The position numbers and the translations under genes are program-made. DNA of 64,000 bases from Longimicrobiales bacterium (GTDB taxonomy: Bacteria; Gemmatimonadota; Gemmatimonadetes; Longimicrobiales; RSA9): the NCBI GenBank assembly GCA_035461765.1, contig DATHUY010000004.1, positions 18,368 through 82,367 of the forward strand, given 5' to 3'. Numbering within the stretch: position 1 is the first letter of the stretch; each line of letters begins with the position of its first letter. Under the pieces are notes generated by a model. It did no database searches. It was not told the DNA's origin and saw only the letters and a list, made by a program, of their open reading frames with translations. Below are positions 11,461-20,150 of the stretch, piece after piece.

Positions 11461-13164
11461 ATGTCGCTCGACCGTCGCACGTTCATGGCGTACTTCGGCA
11501 CTGCCGGTCTCTCCACCACTCTGCTGCCCGGCGTGCTGTGGGGCATGGCGCAGGAGCAGGAGACGGTCACGAAGGAGATGGTCGCCCAGGCTGAGGCGAT
11601 CGCCGGCCTCGAGTTCACGGACGAGGAGCGCGAGGACATCGCGCGCGGACTCTCACGCAGCGTCCGCAATTACGAGCGTCTCCGCGAGGTGCGACTGCCG
11701 AATGCGGTTCCACCCGCCGTGCAGTTCGATCCCGTCCTGCCAGGCATGAGTCTGCCTTCCGAGCGGCGCCCGATACGATACACGCGTGAATCCGCGGTAC
11801 GTCGGCCGGCGAACCTGGAGGAGGTGGCGTTCTGGCCGGTCACGAAGCTGGCGGAGCTTGTGCGGTCGCGGCAGGTGCTGCCGAGTGAGCTGACGGAGAT
11901 GTACCTCGCGCGGATCAGACGCTACGATCCACAGCTGCACGCCGTCGTGACACTGACGGCGGACCGTGCTCGCGCGCAGGCCGCGCGGCTCGACGCGGAG
12001 CTGCACGAGGGCGAGTATCGCGGACCGCTACACGGAATCCCCTGGGGCGCGAAGGATCTGCTCGCAACGCGAGGCTATCCGACGACGTGGGGTGCGTCAC
12101 CGTATCGCGAGCAGGTGCTCGACCTGGACGCGACCGTAGTCGAGCGCCTCGACGCGGCCGGCGCCGTGCTCATTGCCAAGCTCACGATGGGAGCACTCGC
12201 GCAGGGCGATCGCTGGTTTGGCGGCATGACGAGAAACCCGTGGAATCCCGAGGAGGGCTCGAGCGGCTCCTCGGCAGGGCCCGGGTCGGCGACGGCGGCA
12301 GGTCTGGTCGGCTTCGCGATCGGCACTGAGACACTCGGGTCCATCGTGTCGCCCGCCACGCGCAACGGCGTGACCGGCCTGCGCCCCACGTTCGGCCGGG
12401 TCAGCCGTCACGGTGCCATGGCACTGTCGTGGAGCATGGACAAGATCGGTCCGATGTGCAGGAGCGTGGAGGACTGCGCGCTCGTGCTCGATGCGATACA
12501 CGGAGCGGACGGTCACGATCCCGTCGTGCGCGATGTGCCGTTCAACTGGGACGCGGAACGCCCGCTCTCCGAGATCCGCATTGGCTGGTTCCGTTCGGCG
12601 TTCGAGCGCACGAACGATGAAGGTGAGCGCAACGAGTTCGACGCGGCCGCGCTCGCCGCGATGCGGCACATCGTCCCGAACATGATCGAGGTCGAGCTGC
12701 CTGTCGACGAGTACCCGCTCCAGGCGGTCTCCGGATCCGTCCTCGGTGTCGAGGCCGCCGCCGCGTTCGACGAGCTGACGCGCAGCAACCGCGACGAGCT
12801 GCTCGTGCCGGAGCCGGAACGCAGCTCCTGGCCGGGCACGTTCCGCAATGCACGGTTCGTCCCCGCCGTCGAATACATCAATGCCAATCGTGTTCGGACT
12901 CTCGTCATGGAAGCGATGGACAGGGCATTGCGCGACGTCGATGTGATCATCACACCGAACAACATCCTGCTGCTCACCAACCTGACGGGACACCCGCAGG
13001 TGTCGATGCCCGCGGGCTTCACCGACCGCAGGGACGCGCGCGTGCCCGTCAGCGCCCAGTTCATCGGCAGGCTCTTCGGCGAGGCTGACATGCTGCGTGT
13101 GGCGAAAGCGTGGCAGGATGCCACGGGGCATCATCTCGAGGTGCCGCCTGCCTTCGCGATGTGA
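11461..13164 (+). CDS. amidase (amidase-signature family), Tat-type signal
   Basis: MSLDRRTFMAYFGTAGLSTTLLPGV is Tat-like. AS-signature region is GSSGSSAGPGSATAAGLVGFAIGTETLGSIVSPA, with GIPWGAKDL upstream. Confidence 0.88.
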   Translation: MSLDRRTFMAYFGTAGLSTTLLPGVLWGMAQEQETVTKEMVAQAEAIAGLEFTDEEREDIARGLSRSVRNYERLREVRLPNAVPPAVQFDPVLPGMSLPSERRPIRYTRESAVRRPANLEEVAFWPVTKLAELVRSRQVLPSELTEMYLARIRRYDPQLHAVVTLTADRARAQAARLDAELHEGEYRGPLHGIPWGAKDLLATRGYPTTWGASPYREQVLDLDATVVERLDAAGAVLIAKLTMGALAQGDRWFGGMTRNPWNPEEGSSGSSAGPGSATAAGLVGFAIGTETLGSIVSPATRNGVTGLRPTFGRVSRHGAMALSWSMDKIGPMCRSVEDCALVLDAIHGADGHDPVVRDVPFNWDAERPLSEIRIGWFRSAFERTNDEGERNEFDAAALAAMRHIVPNMIEVELPVDEYPLQAVSGSVLGVEAAAAFDELTRSNRDELLVPEPERSSWPGTFRNARFVPAVEYINANRVRTLVMEAMDRALRDVDVIITPNNILLLTNLTGHPQVSMPAGFTDRRDARVPVSAQFIGRLFGEADMLRVAKAWQDATGHHLEVPPAFAM

Positions 13165-13221: not shown

Positions 13222-13881
13222 ATGAACGAGCATCACATCACCGTACGTCGCACTGCCCGGTATTACAGCCTCGGCGATCCCGCTGCGCCCGAGGTGTGGA
13301 TCGCATGTCACGGATACGCGCAGCTGGCGCGCTACTTCCTGCGATCGTTCGTGCCGCTCGATGATGGCAGCCGCTGCATCATCGCACCTGAAGCGCTCAA
13401 CCGGTACTACTACGAGACCGCGCCGGGCGTGCACACCGGCGATGCGCGCATCAGTGCCACCTGGATGACGCGCGAGGACCGCGAGCACGAGATCGAGGAC
13501 TACATCGCCTACCTCGACACGCTCACTGCGCACGTGATCAACGGCACGGCCAGGCGCGTCATTGCGCTCGGGTTCTCGCAGGGCGCCGCCACGGTGTCGC
13601 GCTGGGCGGCGTGCGGCACGGCCCGTATCGACCACGTCATCCTGTGGGGCAGCCCGCTGCCGCCGGAGCTGGAGCCGTCGCCATCACTTCTGCGCGGCGC
13701 GTCCCTGACGATCGCCGTCGGTGAATCCGACCGTCAGATCACCCCCGGCGAGATCGATCGACAGGACCGACGACTGCGGAATGGCGGTCTGGAGTACGAC
13801 CTGATCAGGTATGCCGGAGGCCACCGCGTCGAGCCGCACGCCCTGCGCGACGTAGCGGCTTCGCTGCCACCGCAGTCATGA
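13222..13881 (+). CDS. alpha/beta hydrolase (carboxylesterase/phospholipase-like)
   Basis: 219-aa ORF with GFSQGAA nucleophile elbow and C-terminal GGHRV histidine region. Confidence 0.7.
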   Translation: MNEHHITVRRTARYYSLGDPAAPEVWIACHGYAQLARYFLRSFVPLDDGSRCIIAPEALNRYYYETAPGVHTGDARISATWMTREDREHEIEDYIAYLDTLTAHVINGTARRVIALGFSQGAATVSRWAACGTARIDHVILWGSPLPPELEPSPSLLRGASLTIAVGESDRQITPGEIDRQDRRLRNGGLEYDLIRYAGGHRVEPHALRDVAASLPPQS

Positions 13882-13966
13882 CGCGAGGTACACCACCGTG
13901 CCGCGATGGGAAAAGGATGGCTTAACCCGGACCGGCAGAAGATTGGCCGCGCACGAAGAACTGAAC

Positions 13967-14036
13967 ATGCCCGTGCCCATGCCCGTAAACGTGTGCGTGC
14001 GCCTTCCACATGCCCGTGCCCGTGCCCACGCCCATG
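13967..14036. repeat. Two arrays of 6-nt periodic units (RTGCCC)n in a convergent intergenic gap
   Basis: ATGCCC GTGCCC ATGCCC GT (13967-13986) and ATGCCC GTGCCC GTGCCC ACGCCC ATG (14010-14036), between the esterase stop (13881) and the DDAH stop (14087). Same 6-nt periodic design as the GGGAGC/GGGATC elements, but with no opposing arm. Confidence 0.6.
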
Positions 14037-14086
14037 ACAACCTGACACCAATTCCTGATCCCCGGCACCGGATACCGTAAACCTGC

Positions 14087-14914
14087 CTAACTGGCGACGT
14101 CGAAGACGATGCTGCAGCACGTCACGCCGCCTTCCGCCTTTGCCAGTTCGGACACGTCGACGCCCAGCACATCGATGCCCGCCTCGCGCAGTAGTCGCGC
14201 CGTCTGTTCGAAGGCTGCCGGGTATATCACGCGCTCACCGATCAGCAGTGCGTTCGCAGCGAACGGCTCGTCCCGGGCGATCTCCAGGGTTCGCATCCCG
14301 TCGAAACACGATGGATCGACCCACTGCGTGTTGATGAGCAGCAGGTCAGGGGCAATCGCGGTAACGGCGGTCTTGAGGTGGAGGCAGCCGGTCGGCCGGA
14401 CGGCAGCGACGCGGTATCCGAGCGGCGCCACAGTTTCCCGCAGCCATGCGACGCCGTCGTCGCTGGTGCGGCCTGAGGTGCCGACGTACAGCGTGCGGCC
14501 GATGCGGAGCACATCGCCGCCGTCCAGTGCGGCCGGACCCGGCATCTGCACGACCGTCCGGTGTCGAGTGAGCTCTCCTGCAACGGCCGCGGTCTCCGCG
14601 CGTCGCGTTGCTGCGCCAGGTCTGGTAACGATGGCGACTTCGTCGAGCACGAGCGCTGTGTCCTCGACGAACACAGCGTCGGGCAGATGGTCCGCCGCCG
14701 CCACCTCGATCACATGACAGCCCACTTCAGCCAGCGCCCGTACGTACTCGGCGTGCTGTGCGCGCGCGCGCGCGATGTCGATCGGCTCGCGCTCCAGATG
14801 CGTCAGCTCGCACGCCGCCATTGTCTCGCTTACCGGCCGGGTCAGTGCGATGAGGCGGCCTGCCGACGCCTGTGCCGCGGACGCCGGCTGTGCGCCGCGG
14901 CCGGCGGGACTCAT
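14087..14914 (-). CDS. DDAH/amidinotransferase-fold (guanidino-group-modifying) enzyme
   Basis: Lies in ORF 14087..14950. ATG at 14914 shares ATGA with the upstream gene's stop (plus-strand tcat 14911-14914). DDAH-like pattern: PDAVFVEDTALV, DGGDVLRIGRTLYVGTSGRTS, CLHLKTAVT, and a C-terminal AEGGVTCCSIVF catalytic-Cys context. Confidence 0.82.
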   Translation of the reverse strand: MSPAGRGAQPASAAQASAGRLIALTRPVSETMAACELTHLEREPIDIARARAQHAEYVRALAEVGCHVIEVAAADHLPDAVFVEDTALVLDEVAIVTRPGAATRRAETAAVAGELTRHRTVVQMPGPAALDGGDVLRIGRTLYVGTSGRTSDDGVAWLRETVAPLGYRVAAVRPTGCLHLKTAVTAIAPDLLLINTQWVDPSCFDGMRTLEIARDEPFAANALLIGERVIYPAAFEQTARLLREAGIDVLGVDVSELAKAEGGVTCCSIVFDVAS

Positions 14915-17900
14915 GGAGTCGGGGTGACGGTCAGGCTCCGACCCTGCCACGGCTCATTGCTCAGCAGGCAGTCGGCCAGCTCGCGATAGACTTCGCGCAG
15001 CGCGCGACGGAGCGCCGTCTCGGACTCGGCGTGCGGCTCGAGTCGAGCCCGGATCCGCTCCGACAGTGTACCCTGCGCGATGATCTGCTCGATGAGCGGC
15101 AGATAGCCGCTGTCGCCTTCCTCCACTGCGGCATAGGACCGCTCGAGCAGACTGCGCAGCACGGTCGTGACACCGACGCCGGGGCCGTCCGTGATGCCCG
15201 TGATATGCGGCGCACGCACGAGGGCGCGGCTGCCGTCGCGTACGCACTCGTGGAAGTCCGCAACGAGCGTGTCGGAGGGCGGTGGCGTGATGGTGCCGGC
15301 CAGCACCTCGGTGGTCAGCTGACGCAGCGCCGCACGCGTGAACACGGCGATCGCGACATCCATGCGGACGCACTCCTGCGTGTCGATCACGCGCACCTCC
15401 AGCGCGCGCCGTGCGAACCGCAGGACCGCGCCGCGGCTGTTCAGAAACTCGTGCCGGATCGACGATGAGTGCGGGAACCGGTCGAGCGCGGCGTACATCG
15501 GATGCAGGATGTCGCGTCGGTATCCGGCAAAGCTGTCGACGTACTCCGGCACGATCCGCCCGCAGGTCTCCGGGATCCGCGACTGGTGCTGGAGAATCCA
15601 GCCGAGCCGGCCATCGACGAACGACTGGAGCCGGCCATCATGAACGGGTGAGCTCGCGGCTATCGCTGGCAGATAGGGAACGAGCATGGCCGCCGCCGTA
15701 TGCATGGCCATTGTCTCGCGCTCACTGCCGAACGGCAGGTTGAGATGCGTTGCATGCACGTTCATCCAGCCGTGCGTCCGGATGTCGAAGATCTGCGCGT
15801 AAGTCGTATAGATGCGCAGGCCCGAGCGCGTCCACAGGCGACCGTCCTGCGGATCGAACCACGGATGCATTGCAGTGGGGAGCAGGCGGGCGCCCCATTC
15901 CTGCTGGAGCACCTCCGAGAAGCGCCGGATCCCGCTGACGATCGCCTCGTCCGCATCGCGCAGCGAGCGCACCGGCTCCAGCGTCTTCACCTCGAACACG
16001 TGATCGGCAATCTCGTTCGAGAACCCGACGCGGTCGAGCTCGATGTCGCTGGTGCCGCGACCCGCAATTGCCCGAAACGCGGGCTCCACCAGCGCAACCA
16101 CATCGAGGTCCTCGTCGACCGTCGGATACTCCAGCTCCAGGCCCGCGACCTCGAACAGCTGGTACTGAGGCGCTTCGCGGCGCGCGTCCGCCGGCCGCCG
16201 TGCACCGCCGCTGCCCCCGCTGCTTGCAACGGCACCGCCACCCGTGCCGGACTGACCACTGACGGCGGACCGTCCACGTTTCGACGCGGCCGCCGCGTCC
16301 GACGCGCGCGGCGGTTCTGCGCGCGCTGACATGCCATTGCTGTCGTACCGCTCGGCTTCGAGGGTAGCGACGGCGCCTTGCACGTCCGACGTGTCTCCGT
16401 CCGCCGCTCCCGCTGCAGCCGTGCCGGCACGGGACCGGCCCGCGCCGGTTCGCGTCCGTGCGCGGCCGCGTGCACGTGCGGCCGTTGCCGATGCCGGGCG
16501 CCTCGGCGCTTCCGCCTCCTCTTCGATGCGACGCAGGAAGAACCGGATGATGTCCTCGTAGATGGTGTCGCCGTCGATGGCGTCCTCGTAGTCAGCGTCG
16601 AGATTCGGGTTGTCGTTCACCTCGATGACGACGGGTCCGTTCGCTGTCTCCTTCAGGTCGACGCCATATATGCCGCGGCCGATGAGGCGAGCGGCGCGCA
16701 GTGCGACATCGACGATGGCGGCGGGTGCCTCATCACGGGCGACGGCTTCCACCTTGCCATACCGCTCGACGCCGCCCTCCTCCGTGCGGATCTGCCAGTG
16801 GTCGCGCGCCATGTAGTAGCGTGCGGCAAACAGGAGCTGGCCGTCGAGCACCGTGATGCGCCAGTCGAAGCCGGTGGGCAGCCACTCCTGCGCGATCAGC
16901 AGCGGCGAGTGCGCGAGCAGCTCACCCGCGCGCTGCTCGTAATCCTCGCGTGTCGCAATCTTGTGAACACCGGCCGAGAACGAGCCGTCGGGCGACTTGA
17001 TGACGAACGGCAGGCCGAGCTCCTCGAGCATCGACCACGGCGAGTGCTGCGTGATGATGCGCGTCTTCGGCAGCGGCAGACCCTCGCGCCGCAACAGCTC
17101 CTCGAGGAAAACCTTGTTGCCGCACCGGATGATCGACTGCGAATCGTCGATCACGGGCATATCGAGCGCTTCCGCGCGCAGTGCGAACTGAAACGATGGG
17201 AGCGTGACACCCGTGAGCGACCGGATGAACAGTGCGTCGTATTCCGGCAGTCGCCTCAGCTCCGACGCGTCGATACGTGCGACGTGCACGTTCATCGTGG
17301 CCGCGACCTGCTCCAGGCGGTCGATCGTCTCCGTGCTCGATGCCGTGAACGGGTCGGCCGGGTCGAGCAGCACGGCGATCGAGGCGCGGATCGTATCCCG
17401 CTCCACCGTCCCGCCACGCCGGAGTGCCGGCACGTCGCCGGTCACCGCGTCCACGAGCTGCCGGCGCTGCTCGTCGTCGAGCGTGTCCGGCGACGCGGGC
17501 ATCACGCCCGCGACCTTCCACAGCGACTGCTCGCGCACCACGCGTATGCGGAGCAGCGGTGCCGGCCAGACGCGGTACACGCCTGCGGCGATCGCCTGGA
17601 ACCGCGGGTCCGGCGTCGTGCCGATGCACGCGATGATGTCCTCGACCTCGTCATCGCCGGCCGGGCGGCAGTGGCCGTTCTCGCGGATGAGCGGCAGCGG
17701 GCCGAACCCTTCCGCCGCGGCATCGCTGTCCTCGTCCCACGAAATACCGGCGCGCCGCCAGCGCACGGCCATCTCGCCGGCATCGAGCGTGGCGATGCCT
17801 GCCTCCTGGAGCGCACGGAAGCGCGAATACGGCTCGGCCAGGCCGGCACTGGTCTCCAGCCGCGGCAGGACCTGCTGTCCGCGCGCGTCCGCCAGCAGCG

Positions 17901-18111
17901 ACACGTAATAGCCGTCGCTGCCATAGCCGAGAGTGCGACACAGGTTGATGATGAGGGTATTGGGGTCGGCGGCCGTTTCGCCCGCCTCGATGTAGCCCTG
18001 CGCAGTCGTCACCAGCGCATCCGGAACGCCGTCGGCATCACCTCGTTCGGTGACGACGACGAGCACACGTCTTCGGCTCAAGCAGACTCCTCGTGATCTT
18101 CCGCCGGCCAC
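14911..18111 (-). CDS. Fusion protein: N-terminal RimK-associated domain + RimK-type ATP-grasp ligase + low-complexity linker + GCS2/YbdK-type carboxylate-amine ligase
   Basis: 1066-aa ORF. ATP-grasp region: LPFVIKSPDGSFSAGVHKI, LIAQEWLPTGFDWRITVLDGQLLFAARYY, YGVDLKETANGPVVIEVNDNPN. About 110 aa of A/G/R/S-rich linker follow. The GCS2-like half starts FEVAGLELEYPTVDEDL and includes HATHLNLPF. The start may be a little downstream (e.g. VLVVVTE), because ATG 18111 overlaps the upstream gene's end. Confidence 0.85.
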   Translation of the reverse strand: MAGGRSRGVCLSRRRVLVVVTERGDADGVPDALVTTAQGYIEAGETAADPNTLIINLCRTLGYGSDGYYVSLLADARGQQVLPRLETSAGLAEPYSRFRALQEAGIATLDAGEMAVRWRRAGISWDEDSDAAAEGFGPLPLIRENGHCRPAGDDEVEDIIACIGTTPDPRFQAIAAGVYRVWPAPLLRIRVVREQSLWKVAGVMPASPDTLDDEQRRQLVDAVTGDVPALRRGGTVERDTIRASIAVLLDPADPFTASSTETIDRLEQVAATMNVHVARIDASELRRLPEYDALFIRSLTGVTLPSFQFALRAEALDMPVIDDSQSIIRCGNKVFLEELLRREGLPLPKTRIITQHSPWSMLEELGLPFVIKSPDGSFSAGVHKIATREDYEQRAGELLAHSPLLIAQEWLPTGFDWRITVLDGQLLFAARYYMARDHWQIRTEEGGVERYGKVEAVARDEAPAAIVDVALRAARLIGRGIYGVDLKETANGPVVIEVNDNPNLDADYEDAIDGDTIYEDIIRFFLRRIEEEAEAPRRPASATAARARGRARTRTGAGRSRAGTAAAGAADGDTSDVQGAVATLEAERYDSNGMSARAEPPRASDAAAASKRGRSAVSGQSGTGGGAVASSGGSGGARRPADARREAPQYQLFEVAGLELEYPTVDEDLDVVALVEPAFRAIAGRGTSDIELDRVGFSNEIADHVFEVKTLEPVRSLRDADEAIVSGIRRFSEVLQQEWGARLLPTAMHPWFDPQDGRLWTRSGLRIYTTYAQIFDIRTHGWMNVHATHLNLPFGSERETMAMHTAAAMLVPYLPAIAASSPVHDGRLQSFVDGRLGWILQHQSRIPETCGRIVPEYVDSFAGYRRDILHPMYAALDRFPHSSSIRHEFLNSRGAVLRFARRALEVRVIDTQECVRMDVAIAVFTRAALRQLTTEVLAGTITPPPSDTLVADFHECVRDGSRALVRAPHITGITDGPGVGVTTVLRSLLERSYAAVEEGDSGYLPLIEQIIAQGTLSERIRARLEPHAESETALRRALREVYRELADCLLSNEPWQGRSLTVTPTP

Positions 18112-18902
18112 AGCTCGAGCAGCACGGCGTCATACGTCACATCGCCCAGCAGTATCGAATTGATCAGGCGCTCCGCACTCACGATCAGCCGGCCGTCCGG
18201 CGTCGCCGGTACGTGTTCCGACGGATCGAGCACGGTCAGACGCCGCCCCCACTGATCGTAACCACTCACGACGATGAAGTGGCCGGTCGGCTCACCGGCC
18301 ACGTCGTCATCGACAAGTTTTCCGTCTACTTCGTCCCAGCGCTCGCGCGCGAAGCCGTACAGATACGTCGCCGACAGTCCGGCGAGCACCGGATGGCCGC
18401 GATCGATGATGGACTTGAGCAGCGCCGGCGTCAGCTCATCGAACGCCAGCTCGCCGCCCTTTTCCAGGTACCTCACGTATGCAACGGCCGCGCCCCGGCG
18501 CTTGGAATCCGTCAGATACGGCGAGCGCGCGCGGATCTTCCTGATCAGCTCCTCGCGCGGCAGATGGGTCCAGGTCGGATCGAAGATCTGCAGGTCGTAG
18601 GAGTAGATGCGGGCACGCAGGCCCCGTCGCATCGCGGCCATGCCGAGGAACACCGCGAGCGTGCCGCCGTCCTCGTTGCGCTCGATCGCGTCGACTACCG
18701 AGTCCATGTCGATGTCGAAGCCATAGAAGTCGTAGACCTTCCGCAGGCACGTCGGACCGCACGTCACATCGTCCGGCTGCAGGAATCGGTGCACCGGCAG
18801 CTCGCGCGCGATCTCGGTGGCCTCCGTCCTGTCCTCCGTGCGTACGATGAGGCGGCGCAGCTTCGGCCCCTCCGTCGCGAGTACCTCCGGCTTCGTTCCC
18901 AT
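18078..18902 (-). CDS. free-standing C39-like (papain-fold) cysteine peptidase
   Basis: Lies in ORF 18078..19355. ATG at 18902 (plus-strand cat 18900-18902) gives MGTKPEVL. The pattern LQPDDVTCGPTCLRKVYDFYG (Cys), TGHFIVVSGYD (His) and LTVLDPSE (Asp) mirrors C39 bacteriocin-leader peptidase domains. No ABC-transporter portion is present. Confidence 0.75.
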   Translation of the reverse strand: MGTKPEVLATEGPKLRRLIVRTEDRTEATEIARELPVHRFLQPDDVTCGPTCLRKVYDFYGFDIDMDSVVDAIERNEDGGTLAVFLGMAAMRRGLRARIYSYDLQIFDPTWTHLPREELIRKIRARSPYLTDSKRRGAAVAYVRYLEKGGELAFDELTPALLKSIIDRGHPVLAGLSATYLYGFARERWDEVDGKLVDDDVAGEPTGHFIVVSGYDQWGRRLTVLDPSEHVPATPDGRLIVSAERLINSILLGDVTYDAVLLELWPAEDHEESA

Positions 18903-19022
18903 GATATCCAATATACAACCGCTCCCCGCGGAGCGGATCACCGCCGGCAATGCGCATACCAGGCGGGGAAACCCCGGCCGGCCAGCGGCGTACCATGGAG
19001 CGGATTCATCAGCGGAGGCGGC
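18903..19022. promoter_or_regulatory. divergent control region between the C39-like peptidase operon and the M50 protease gene
   Basis: 120-bp gap between divergent ATGs. It holds the palindrome CCGCTCC-N4-GGAGCGG (18919-18936) and GGAGCGGAT twice (18930-18938, 18997-19005). On the minus strand TATATT lies 7 nt upstream of the peptidase ATG with no SD in between, suggesting a possible leaderless start. Confidence 0.35.
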
Positions 19023-20150
19023 ATGAAGGTTGGCAGGCAGGCGGTCCTGTTGCTCGGTGGTGCGCTGTTCGGCGCCCTGCTCGGGATAGCGCTCGGTATG
19101 CTCGCCGGCGATGCCGTCGCCCCGATCATCCGCGGTCCGGGCGGCGCACTGCTCGCCCTGGCCCTCTATTTCGTCTGCATCCTCGCCCACGAGGCCGGAC
19201 ATCTCGCCGCGGGCGCCCTCGCCGGGTTTCGGCCCCTGCTGCTGATCGCCGGACCGCTGCGGCTCGAACGCCGCAACGGCCGGACGATCGCATCGTTCAA
19301 TCGCTCCATCCCGCTGGCCGGCGGCCTGGCGATCTGCACGCCTGTCGGCCTCCACGACCTGCGCCGTCGCACCATGATCATGGCCGCTGGCGGCCCGCTC
19401 GCATCACTGCTGCTCGGCGTTCAGTGCCTGGTTTTCTGGATGGCGCTGTCCTCTTTCGGCGCGGCTGCATCCGCCGCGGGCTCGGCACTGCTGCTGGCGG
19501 GCGTCATCTCGCTTGCGATCGGCGTTCTGACGCTGCTGCCGATGCGGGCGGGAGGCTTCTATTCGGATGGCGCGCGCATTCTGCGGCTGATGCGCAACAA
19601 CGAGGAGACGGTGCGTGAAGTCGCGCTCATGGCGCTGACCGCGCACAGCCTCGGCGGCACGCGGCCGCGCGACTGGGACGCCGAGCTGGTTCGGAGTGCA
19701 GCATCTATCCGCGACGGTGGTGCGTTCGAGGTGAGCGGTCTGGCATTCGCGCATCTGCACGCGCTCGACACCGGCGATATCGGCGCGGCCCGCGGCTACC
19801 TCGATGAGACACTTGCTCGTGTGCACCAGCTGCCGGCCGCGAGTCGTGGCCCGCTGCAGCTGGGTGCCGCTGTGTTTTTTGCGCTGTACGATCGGGACGT
19901 GGCCCGCGCGCGAGCGAATCTCGATGCGGCCGGCACGCGCACGGGGCTGCTCGGCGCGCCGCATCAGCGTCTGCTGGCCGAAGCGGCCGTGCGTCTGGCT
20001 GAGGGAGATGTCGAGGGTGCGGTGGCGGGTGCGGCCGCAGCCAGTGAGCTGATCGAGCGGGACTCCGGACCGGGCAGCACCGGGATCGATGCCGCCCACG
20101 CCCGTCGCATCCTCAATGCAGCAATCGCAGCGCCAGGAAGCCCAGGATGA
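19023..20150 (+). CDS. M50 family (site-2-protease-like) integral membrane metalloprotease with soluble helical C-terminal domain
   Basis: Lies in ORF 18093..20150 with ATG at 19023 (MKVGRQAVLLLGG). HEAGH zinc motif sits in TM2 (ILAHEAGHLAAG). Several TM helices follow, with a second motif region LTLLPMRAGGFYSDGARIL. Confidence 0.78.
   Translation: MKVGRQAVLLLGGALFGALLGIALGMLAGDAVAPIIRGPGGALLALALYFVCILAHEAGHLAAGALAGFRPLLLIAGPLRLERRNGRTIASFNRSIPLAGGLAICTPVGLHDLRRRTMIMAAGGPLASLLLGVQCLVFWMALSSFGAAASAAGSALLLAGVISLAIGVLTLLPMRAGGFYSDGARILRLMRNNEETVREVALMALTAHSLGGTRPRDWDAELVRSAASIRDGGAFEVSGLAFAHLHALDTGDIGAARGYLDETLARVHQLPAASRGPLQLGAAVFFALYDRDVARARANLDAAGTRTGLLGAPHQRLLAEAAVRLAEGDVEGAVAGAAAASELIERDSGPGSTGIDAAHARRILNAAIAAPGSPG

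Follow-up and report, generated by a model that had tools for sequence, protein, structure and literature searches.

We analyzed a 64,000-nt stretch of DNA from a Longimicrobiales bacterium (assembly GCA_035461765.1, contig DATHUY010000004.1, positions 18,368 to 82,367 of the forward strand), which we call the window and whose numbering is used throughout. On its minus strand lies a gene that joins two amide-forming ligases of different fold in a single polypeptide, flanked by genes for a C39-like cysteine peptidase and a DDAH-like hydrolase. Its open reading frame (ORF), 14911..18111, had been singled out in a first-pass annotation made from the sequence, and it is indeed present and intact, with all the motifs quoted for it and an uninterrupted length of 1066 aa counted from the GTG at 18111 given in the ORF listing. 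The true start is probably the TTG at 18081 (codon 11), which would leave the first ten codons of the longest ORF untranslated. We favor this start because it overlaps the stop codon of the upstream C39-like gene by 4 nt (TTGA), and because a database protein 100% identical to ours (P0001) has 1056 aa and the homologues start at the equivalent LSRRR. At the other end, the stop codon is embedded in an ATGA that opens the DDAH-like gene. The gene and its parts, with residues in the 1056-aa numbering, are the following:

14911..18081, minus strand: fused ligase gene, 1056 aa, TTG start at 18081, stop TGA at 14913-14911
17398..18081, minus strand: RLAN domain (PF14401), residues 1-228
16501..17397, minus strand: pre-ATP-grasp and RimK-like ATP-grasp ligase domain (PF08443 and related families), residues 229-527
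16174..16500, minus strand: low-complexity linker, predicted disordered, residues 528-636 (109 aa)
14914..16173, minus strand: GCS2-type carboxylate-amine ligase domain (PF04107), residues 637-1056

Domain architecture of the fused ligase

The protein reads RLAN, RimK-like ATP-grasp, linker and GCS2 from its N-terminus, and in a Pfam scan all three domains exceed their gathering cut-offs. RLAN and ATP-grasp together take up about 50% of the chain, the linker 10% and GCS2 40%. The order of the ligases and the linker of about 110 aa described in the first-pass annotation stand, while its division into an N-terminal two-thirds and a C-terminal third does not. Its claim that two different amide-ligase folds share one polypeptide holds: one is an ATP-grasp, and the other is the GCS2 fold, which resembles glutamine synthetase and glutamate-cysteine ligase (GCL). 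Automated annotation of the protein already exists, under the name ‘glutamate-cysteine ligase family protein’ and with the COG pair RimK-type ligase/YbdK. The full-length AlphaFold model has a mean predicted local distance difference test (pLDDT) score of 85.4 and consists of two confident halves. A Foldseek search with this model, a check proposed in the annotation, matched the N-terminal half to RimK, LysX, ArgX and Ddl (TMt 0.7-0.8, E ~1e-14) and the C-terminal half to YbdK (1r8g/1tt4, TMt 0.78-0.81, E ~4e-14).

In the ATP-grasp half, PF08443 matches residues 332-506 with 37.9 bits against a cut-off of 21 (1066-aa numbering, as for the other Pfam matches and for the ATP/Mg residues below), and phmmer finds E. 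coli RimK (5zct/4iwx) at E ~4e-15. Residues K333, K372, R418, D485, E497 and N499 align with the ATP/Mg residues K100, K141, R189, D248, E260 and N262 of RimK, and all six positions are invariant in 22 diverse relatives, with identity down to 29%. Scores stay under the cut-offs of the RimK-type NCBIfam models, with 83.7 against 143.4 for TIGR00768, 54.2 against 331 for the RimK equivalog NF007764 and 83 against 276 for the LysX model; the MptN and CofF models likewise score under cut-off.

The C-terminal ligase had been called complete, and PF04107 covers positions 2-279 of the 291 in the model (residues 657-933, E 7e-23, 81.8 bits against a cut-off of 21). Searching the PDB with this half as a single sequence gave no match, and neither did a profile of the fused homologues. 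A 30-member profile of the GCS2 family matched plant GCL, from 5e-7 (9ufc) to 3e-6, and YbdK at 4.7e-5. The motifs GLELEY, HLNL and LEVRVxD align with GIELEM, HVHV and VEVRVMD of YbdK, and an E/E/E/H/E/N/R/E/D set is invariant across 30 homologues. The C-terminal half thus shares its fold and its active-site strand motifs with YbdK and with plant and proteobacterial GCLs. It differs from YbdK in sequence, with about 15% identity and a score far below the YbdK-family cut-off (TIGR02050, 37 against 176.4); two further GCL/YbdK models, NF010039 (27 against 371) and NF010043 (22.8 against 409), are also missed. To our knowledge, neither YbdK nor these GCLs have ever been seen fused to an ATP-grasp domain. 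The annotation had named a half lacking its nucleotide-binding residues as grounds for doubt; in the alignments to RimK and YbdK neither half lacks them, and the catalytic (ATP/Mg) motifs of both are intact.

The N-terminal domain of about 230 aa, present as described and left without a name in the annotation, corresponds to the known RLAN domain: PF14401 matches residues 38-221, directly N-terminal to the ATP-grasp, with E 4.5e-25 and 88.5 bits against a cut-off of 25. The family carries an invariant motif, NLCR..Y.S.GYYVSLLA.ARG..V.P., and residues N46, G57, Y58, S61, L62, P73 and P175 are invariant in comparisons of 22-36 diverse homologues. These residues sit in the N-terminal, Rossmann-like part of the domain and none of them belongs to the catalytic set of ATP-grasp enzymes. 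Modelled alone, RLAN reaches a pLDDT of 90.4, and the top 50 Foldseek matches of this model in the PDB are all proteins of the ATP-grasp superfamily, among them LysX, ArgX, a RimK-domain protein, CPS, ITPK1, synapsin, biotin carboxylase, PsnB and Ddl. The matches range from E 4.5e-5 (LysX, 1uc8) to 3e-3, with TMq values of about 0.5-0.57 and a high root-mean-square deviation of 7-9 Å. There is moderate support, from these models, for RLAN being a degenerate, catalytically dead ATP-grasp-like module, and such a degenerate fold would suggest the architecture of a pseudo-enzyme with its partner. In Methanocella, RLAN is encoded by a 230-aa gene of its own adjoining that of RimK (L004, 6113-6805).

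The linker and the conservation of the fusion

The linker is composed of Ala, Gly, Arg, Ser, Thr and Pro to 81% and has a net charge of +8. It is the sole long stretch of low confidence in the AlphaFold model, with pLDDT below 50 and no secondary structure. The codon-position signature is flattened here, with a GC content at third codon positions (GC3) of 0.70-0.78 compared with 0.80-0.95 in the flanks, and a second-position content (GC2) rising to about 0.75. Such a signature fits fast-evolving, low-complexity coding sequence. When the linker was tested for tandem-repeat expansion, no real repeat structure emerged, just trivial repeats of 9 and 15 nt.

One could argue that the long ORF is an artefact, with two genes that only seem to be one through a sequencing frameshift or a misassembly, or because the frame happens to stay open across GC-rich DNA; the annotation itself had listed a frameshift or misassembly in the linker as the finding that would undo its claim. 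The missing excess of GC3 over GC2 in the linker would agree with this, as would the database entries that resemble standalone GCS2 proteins at 58-90% identity. However, searching databases with the whole protein gave 338 matches, and the best 120 of them all contain RLAN, RimK and GCS2. Most of these best 120 measure 955-1090 aa, with 55-100% identity to the query; they come from NCBI, JGI, ENA and Logan assemblies and, where named, belong to Longimicrobiales, Longimicrobium or Gemmatimonadota. In an alignment of 15 fused homologues, conservation is dense in both halves and the linker is hypervariable; close homologues keep the frame across linkers of differing length. Among 124 fused clusters from these four independent sources, all of them in one frame, the stretch between the NDNPN and GxELEYP motifs measures 53 to 188 aa (median 72), and the fusion was confirmed by direct frame reading in nine loci. 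The two standalone-type GCS2 entries that we checked (P0121 and P0136) are truncations, since they start 89-127 nt from the ends of their contigs. The ORF contains no stop codon and is precisely coupled to the genes on either side. An artefact is thus so improbable as to be negligible, and the idea can be considered effectively refuted; the fusion is genuine and conserved.

The length of the linker is another matter. Motif distances above 120 aa are restricted, among the 124 clusters, to the close relatives of the window, and most fused homologues have a linker of only about 25-30 aa. Judging from these distances, the 109-aa linker is a local expansion in the close relatives of the window rather than a family-wide trait. 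In close relatives, metagenome contigs stop within or beside the GC-rich linker (L088, 1-89; L089, 1-127), and assemblies evidently tend to break there.

Operon context, relatives and origin of the fusion

Beyond what the first-pass annotation had described, the fused gene is part of a translationally coupled operon, whose other genes in the window are these:

18078..18902, minus strand: C39-like (papain-fold) cysteine peptidase gene, 274 aa, ATG at 18902, stop overlapping the ligase start by 4 nt
14087..14914, minus strand: DDAH-like (amidinotransferase-superfamily) hydrolase gene, 275 aa, ATG overlapping the ligase stop

The product of the upstream gene matches PF13529 at 1.4e-10, and also PF03412; PF13529 is matched by all 14 of its orthologues. 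In these orthologues the catalytic set is invariant, comprising Q42 (the oxyanion residue) and C48 in QPDDxTCGPTC, H208 in GHF, and D226. The profile of the family also matches the double-glycine peptidase domain of ComA (3k8u) at 1.2e-6. The downstream protein matches the dimethylargininase model NF045660 at 5e-67, with 226 bits, under the cut-off of 340, as well as PF19420/PF02274, and it ends in GGVTCCS, which we take to be the catalytic Cys motif of the superfamily. This gene was found only in the window and in its closest relatives (L005, L008 and L088). A region of 120 bp separates the C39-like gene from a divergent neighbor. A sigma-70 promoter scan of 13800-19500 gave no site, and the three weak terminator-like sites in this interval are not above the expectation from shuffled sequence.

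The same core is encoded elsewhere by separate genes. The unfused operon is ordered as a C39_2-like peptidase (~245 aa), RLAN-RimK (~530 aa), GCS2 (~405 aa) and, usually, an N-formylglutamate-amidohydrolase-like (FGase-like) hydrolase, and it occurs in Acidobacteriota, Planctomycetota, Verrucomicrobiota, Bacteroidota, Fibrobacter, Gammaproteobacteria and Gemmatimonadaceae. Its three core proteins, their order and their translational coupling are those of the window; what differs is that in the window the two ligases are one polypeptide with a disordered linker, and that the DDAH-like gene stands in place of the FGase-like one, with no FGase-like (PF05013) gene anywhere in the window by tblastn. 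Identity between fused and unfused forms is 36-44% for the N-terminal halves and 34-55% for the C-terminal ones; the standalone GCS2 homologues that led to operons of this form are 36-55% identical. In an Acidobacteria metagenome-assembled genome (MAG) and in a 2-Mb contig, the unfused RLAN-RimK and GCS2 genes overlap by 4 nt. The functional coupling of the two ligases, which the annotation had read from the fusion, is strongly backed by these operons, in which the unfused genes lie next to each other with a 4-nt overlap.

Among species-representative genomes, at least 596 encode relatives of RLAN-RimK. An exhaustive HMMER search, for which the N-terminal half served as query, gave 289 representative clusters at E <1e-30, mostly standalone proteins of 480-550 aa, with a few fused ones and a subset of 636-672 aa that carry an added GNAT domain. 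In order to see which genes accompany them, we surveyed 86 loci with tblastn, 80 from the species-representative scan, spanning many phyla, and six fetched earlier. GCS2 directly follows RLAN-RimK in 37 of the 86 loci, as a separate adjacent gene in 28 and fused in nine, which answers the question, raised in the annotation, of whether homologues occur fused or apart. The C39-like gene lies upstream in 34 of these 37 loci, and the FGase-like gene lies downstream in 18. Eight of the nine fused loci belong to Gemmatimonadota or Longimicrobiales MAGs. The ninth (L013, 6001-9500) is labelled Alphaproteobacteria, isolate ‘MYXO-39’, and retains an FGase-like gene; its taxonomic label may be unreliable. 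Separate genes are found in a Gemmatimonadaceae-labelled MAG (L014) and in two other Gemmatimonadetes MAGs (L038 and L050).

When the N-terminal halves are placed in a neighbor-joining tree, the fused forms all group in one clade, from which L013 branches off first; the nearest outgroups are operons with separate genes. One fusion event is the simplest account, because all fused forms share this clade. The simplest history would then be one fusion, followed by loss of the FGase-like gene in Longimicrobiales and by gain of the DDAH-like gene together with linker expansion in the sub-clade of the window. Neighborhoods of ATP-grasp, COOH-NH2-ligase and peptidase genes were reportedly predicted by Iyer, Abhiman, Burroughs and Aravind in Mol Biosyst in 2009. 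The fusion is a new architectural variant of a predicted amidoligase operon, recognized by comparative genomics and experimentally uncharacterized, and not a new kind of system.

Loci without GCS2 present a different partner. By tblastn, 43 of 48 such loci (L073, 4713-5855 on the minus strand, and others within L017-L086) have an adjacent GNAT gene, fused in 17 of the 43 to a C39-like DUF3335 domain. One of these loci, from Tahibacter, seemed to lack a partner when its longest ORFs were scanned with Pfam, but tblastn revealed an adjacent GNAT. Single-chain GNAT-RLAN-RimK fusions also exist (P0261, P0262, P0311 and P0340), and the GNAT of P0262 reaches the cut-off for the RimI ribosomal acetyltransferase (90.5 against 86.4). 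The GNAT-linked proteins form a separate branch of the neighbor-joining tree. They share the RLAN-RimK core with the window and, likewise, combine it with another acyl- or amide-forming enzyme and with a C39-like domain; the difference is that GNAT stands in for GCS2. A second acyl/amide-forming partner, GCS2 or GNAT, is thus a constant of the family, since GNAT pairs with RLAN-RimK in 43 of the 48 non-GCS2 loci; RLAN-RimK is consistently paired with such an enzyme plus a papain-like one. DUF3335-GNAT fusions have been noted before (PMC10318531). The GNAT-RLAN-RimK relatives were also considered as N-acetylglutaminylglutamine synthetases (Ngg, TIGR03103) and rejected, as they reach only about 27-29 bits where the cut-off is 569.

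Regarding the surroundings of the operon, the divergent gene that shares the 120-bp intergenic region (19023-20150, plus strand) encodes a membrane protein with a HEAGH motif and a weak Peptidase_M50 match (22.8 bits, under cut-off). Convergent to the operon are the genes for a 567-aa amidase-signature enzyme whose N-terminus resembles a twin-arginine signal (RRTFM; 11461-13164, plus strand) and for a small alpha/beta-hydrolase (13222-13881, plus strand). The amidase holds the same position in L005 and L006 and the hydrolase is also present in L005 and L088, the contig of the latter ending before the position of the amidase; this conserved placement probably reflects synteny rather than function. 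In L005, a 76%-identical relative, a second amidoligase cluster (a circularly permuted CP_ATPgrasp_2, another GCS2 and a Peptidase_C26/GATase; 1-2800) lies about 5 kb upstream of the C39-like gene. Genes for cyanophycin synthetase and/or cyanophycinase (S51) lie a few kb from the fused ligase, in differing arrangements, in Longimicrobium-type loci (L089, 1747-5356; L007, 2619-4633; L001, 14475-15368). We did not adopt a link to cyanophycin metabolism, as CphA and S51 occur neither in the window nor in any locus other than these three. Cyanophycin synthetase was discarded too as an identity for the fused protein, with a local ATP-grasp match of 31 bits against 877 and no Mur-ligase domain.

Proposed function and its alternatives

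Our preferred reading, which we consider about evenly poised between right and wrong, is that the fused protein is a bifunctional ATP-dependent amide ligase that would make a small glutamate-containing peptide or conjugate by two sequential ligations. The substrates, bond types, order of steps and roles of the hydrolases are all inferred from the chemistry of the families, and the labels of alpha-type and gamma-type Glu ligase used in the annotation, like glutamate itself as the substrate, are taken from family precedent only. In this scheme, the gene was born from two adjacent, translationally coupled operon genes, and each catalytic half would activate a carboxylate as an acyl-phosphate and then couple it to an amine. 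Most likely, GCS2 would form a gamma-glutamyl-type amide and the RimK-like half would attach an amino acid, glutamate if precedent holds, to an alpha-carboxylate; the overall logic would be that of glutathione synthesis, in which a GCL-type ligase acts first and an ATP-grasp ligase second. The disordered linker would merely tether the two active sites, and RLAN, as a dead ATP-grasp-like module, would probably serve substrate binding or assembly. The C39-like enzyme, co-translated with the ligase, might hydrolyze or transfer the product, and the DDAH-like enzyme could act on a guanidino group of substrate or product.

The alternative of transfer has a precedent in closthioamide biosynthesis, where a C39/BtrH-like enzyme was shown to be an amide-forming transacylase beside an ATP-grasp ligase (CtaD/CtaG; PMC7183216). 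CtaD/CtaG and butirosin BtrJ/BtrH resemble the operon in combining an ATP-grasp ligase with a papain/C39-like Cys-His-Asp enzyme in amide assembly, but they are thiotemplated on carrier proteins, and no carrier-protein (PCP/ACP) gene is seen in this operon (PMC7183216 for the known systems). Following the CtaD/CtaG precedent, the C39-like partner could be a transferase rather than a hydrolase.

A small-peptide product is favored because there is no carrier or precursor gene in the operon (no conserved small ORF of this kind is visible in the operons examined), because of the small-molecule precedents of FGase, DDAH and GCL, and because of the GNAT partner in the sister subfamily. The characterized relatives of GCS2/GCL, FGase and DDAH act on free amino acids. 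Several points weigh against this proposal. None of the NCBIfam equivalog and subfamily models (RimK, LysX, MptN, CofF, YbdK and GshA-type) is matched above its cut-off, so specificity is not transferable from any of these families. The best-known members of the RimK family, RimK and LysX/ArgX, modify the C-termini of proteins, and peptides are the classical substrates of C39 peptidases, so a protein or peptide substrate fits equally well. The accessory chemistry is not fixed, as the FGase-like gene has been lost and the DDAH-like gene is limited to a sub-clade. Besides, full-text literature searches for RLAN/PF14401, and for the combination of ATP-grasp with FGase, GCL and C39, returned no paper on this system.

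It is possible, although we consider it rather unlikely, that the module instead modifies the C-terminus of a protein or peptide. Here the RimK-like half would add one or more Glu residues to the C-terminus of a target or carrier protein, in the way that RimK acts on S6 and LysX/ArgX on LysW, GCS2 would work like PafA in pupylation and join a Glu carboxylate to an amine (a lysine or a small amine), the C39-like enzyme would trim or take off the modification, as RimB does for RimK, and RLAN would be the target adaptor. Among proteins of solved structure, RimK and LysX/ArgX come nearest to the ATP-grasp half, both by sequence and by fold; the structures include S6 and LysW complexes, and the catalytic residues align with ours. 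RimK is paired with the protease RimB, a likeness to the C39 pairing seen here; RimK and LysX/ArgX have neither RLAN nor GCS2. A dead RLAN module, separate in Methanocella, would suit an adaptor, the match of the C39-like profile to peptide-cleaving ComA domains comes with retained catalytic residues, PafA and GCS2 belong to one superfamily, and in one case (P0262) the GNAT of the sister subfamily passes the RimI cut-off. On the other hand, the window protein scores far under the equivalog cut-offs (54 against 331 for RimK and 83 against 276 for LysX), the operons examined have no conserved small protein or precursor gene beside them, and the FGase-like and DDAH-like partners come from families known for small-molecule substrates. 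An extended form of this proposal seems to us more doubtful still: C39/RLAN-RimK/GCS2 might be an undescribed prokaryotic protein-tagging or tail-modification system, in which the RimK-like half would build a Glu tail on a protein C-terminus, the PafA-like GCS2 would join the tail to an amine of a second molecule, the C39-like enzyme would mature or de-conjugate the product and RLAN would act as adaptor.

Much less probable is a synthetase of glutathione, or of a close thiol analogue, as a reversed-order analogue of the bifunctional GshF. GshF/GshAB, known from Streptococcus agalactiae, Listeria and Pasteurella, fuses a GCL-fold and an ATP-grasp ligase for two consecutive amide ligations, and it shows that such single-chain fusions can act sequentially. 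Our protein likewise has a GCL-like fold and an ATP-grasp domain in one chain; the profile of its C-terminal family matches plant-type GCLs (5e-7 to 3e-6), and glutathione synthetase models match its relatives weakly. But the domain order is reversed: GshF has an N-terminal GshA-type GCL and a Ddl-like ATP-grasp, whereas the window protein combines a RimK-like ATP-grasp, not one of Ddl/GshB type, with a GCS2 that is not GshA, and it adds a long linker and RLAN, which has no counterpart in GshF. Scores are far under the cut-offs for GshA-type (22.8 against 409) and YbdK (37 against 176) models, and the dedicated C39-like peptidase and the FGase/DDAH partner are foreign to glutathione synthesis.

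Whatever the substrate, the fusion constitutes ‘Rosetta-stone’ evidence that the RLAN-RimK and GCS2 ligases work in one pathway, and none of the proteins of the operon matches a curated functional model. Since it carries both active sites in one chain, the fused protein is also the easiest construct with which to reconstitute the reaction in vitro and look for the product. With a protein as substrate, the operon would represent a new bacterial modification system and, should the tagging proposal be true, the Longimicrobiales fusion would be a single-chain ‘E1/E3-like’ tagging enzyme. If, instead, a new glutamyl peptide (a thiol, an osmolyte or a storage compound) is made, an orphan pathway would be filled.

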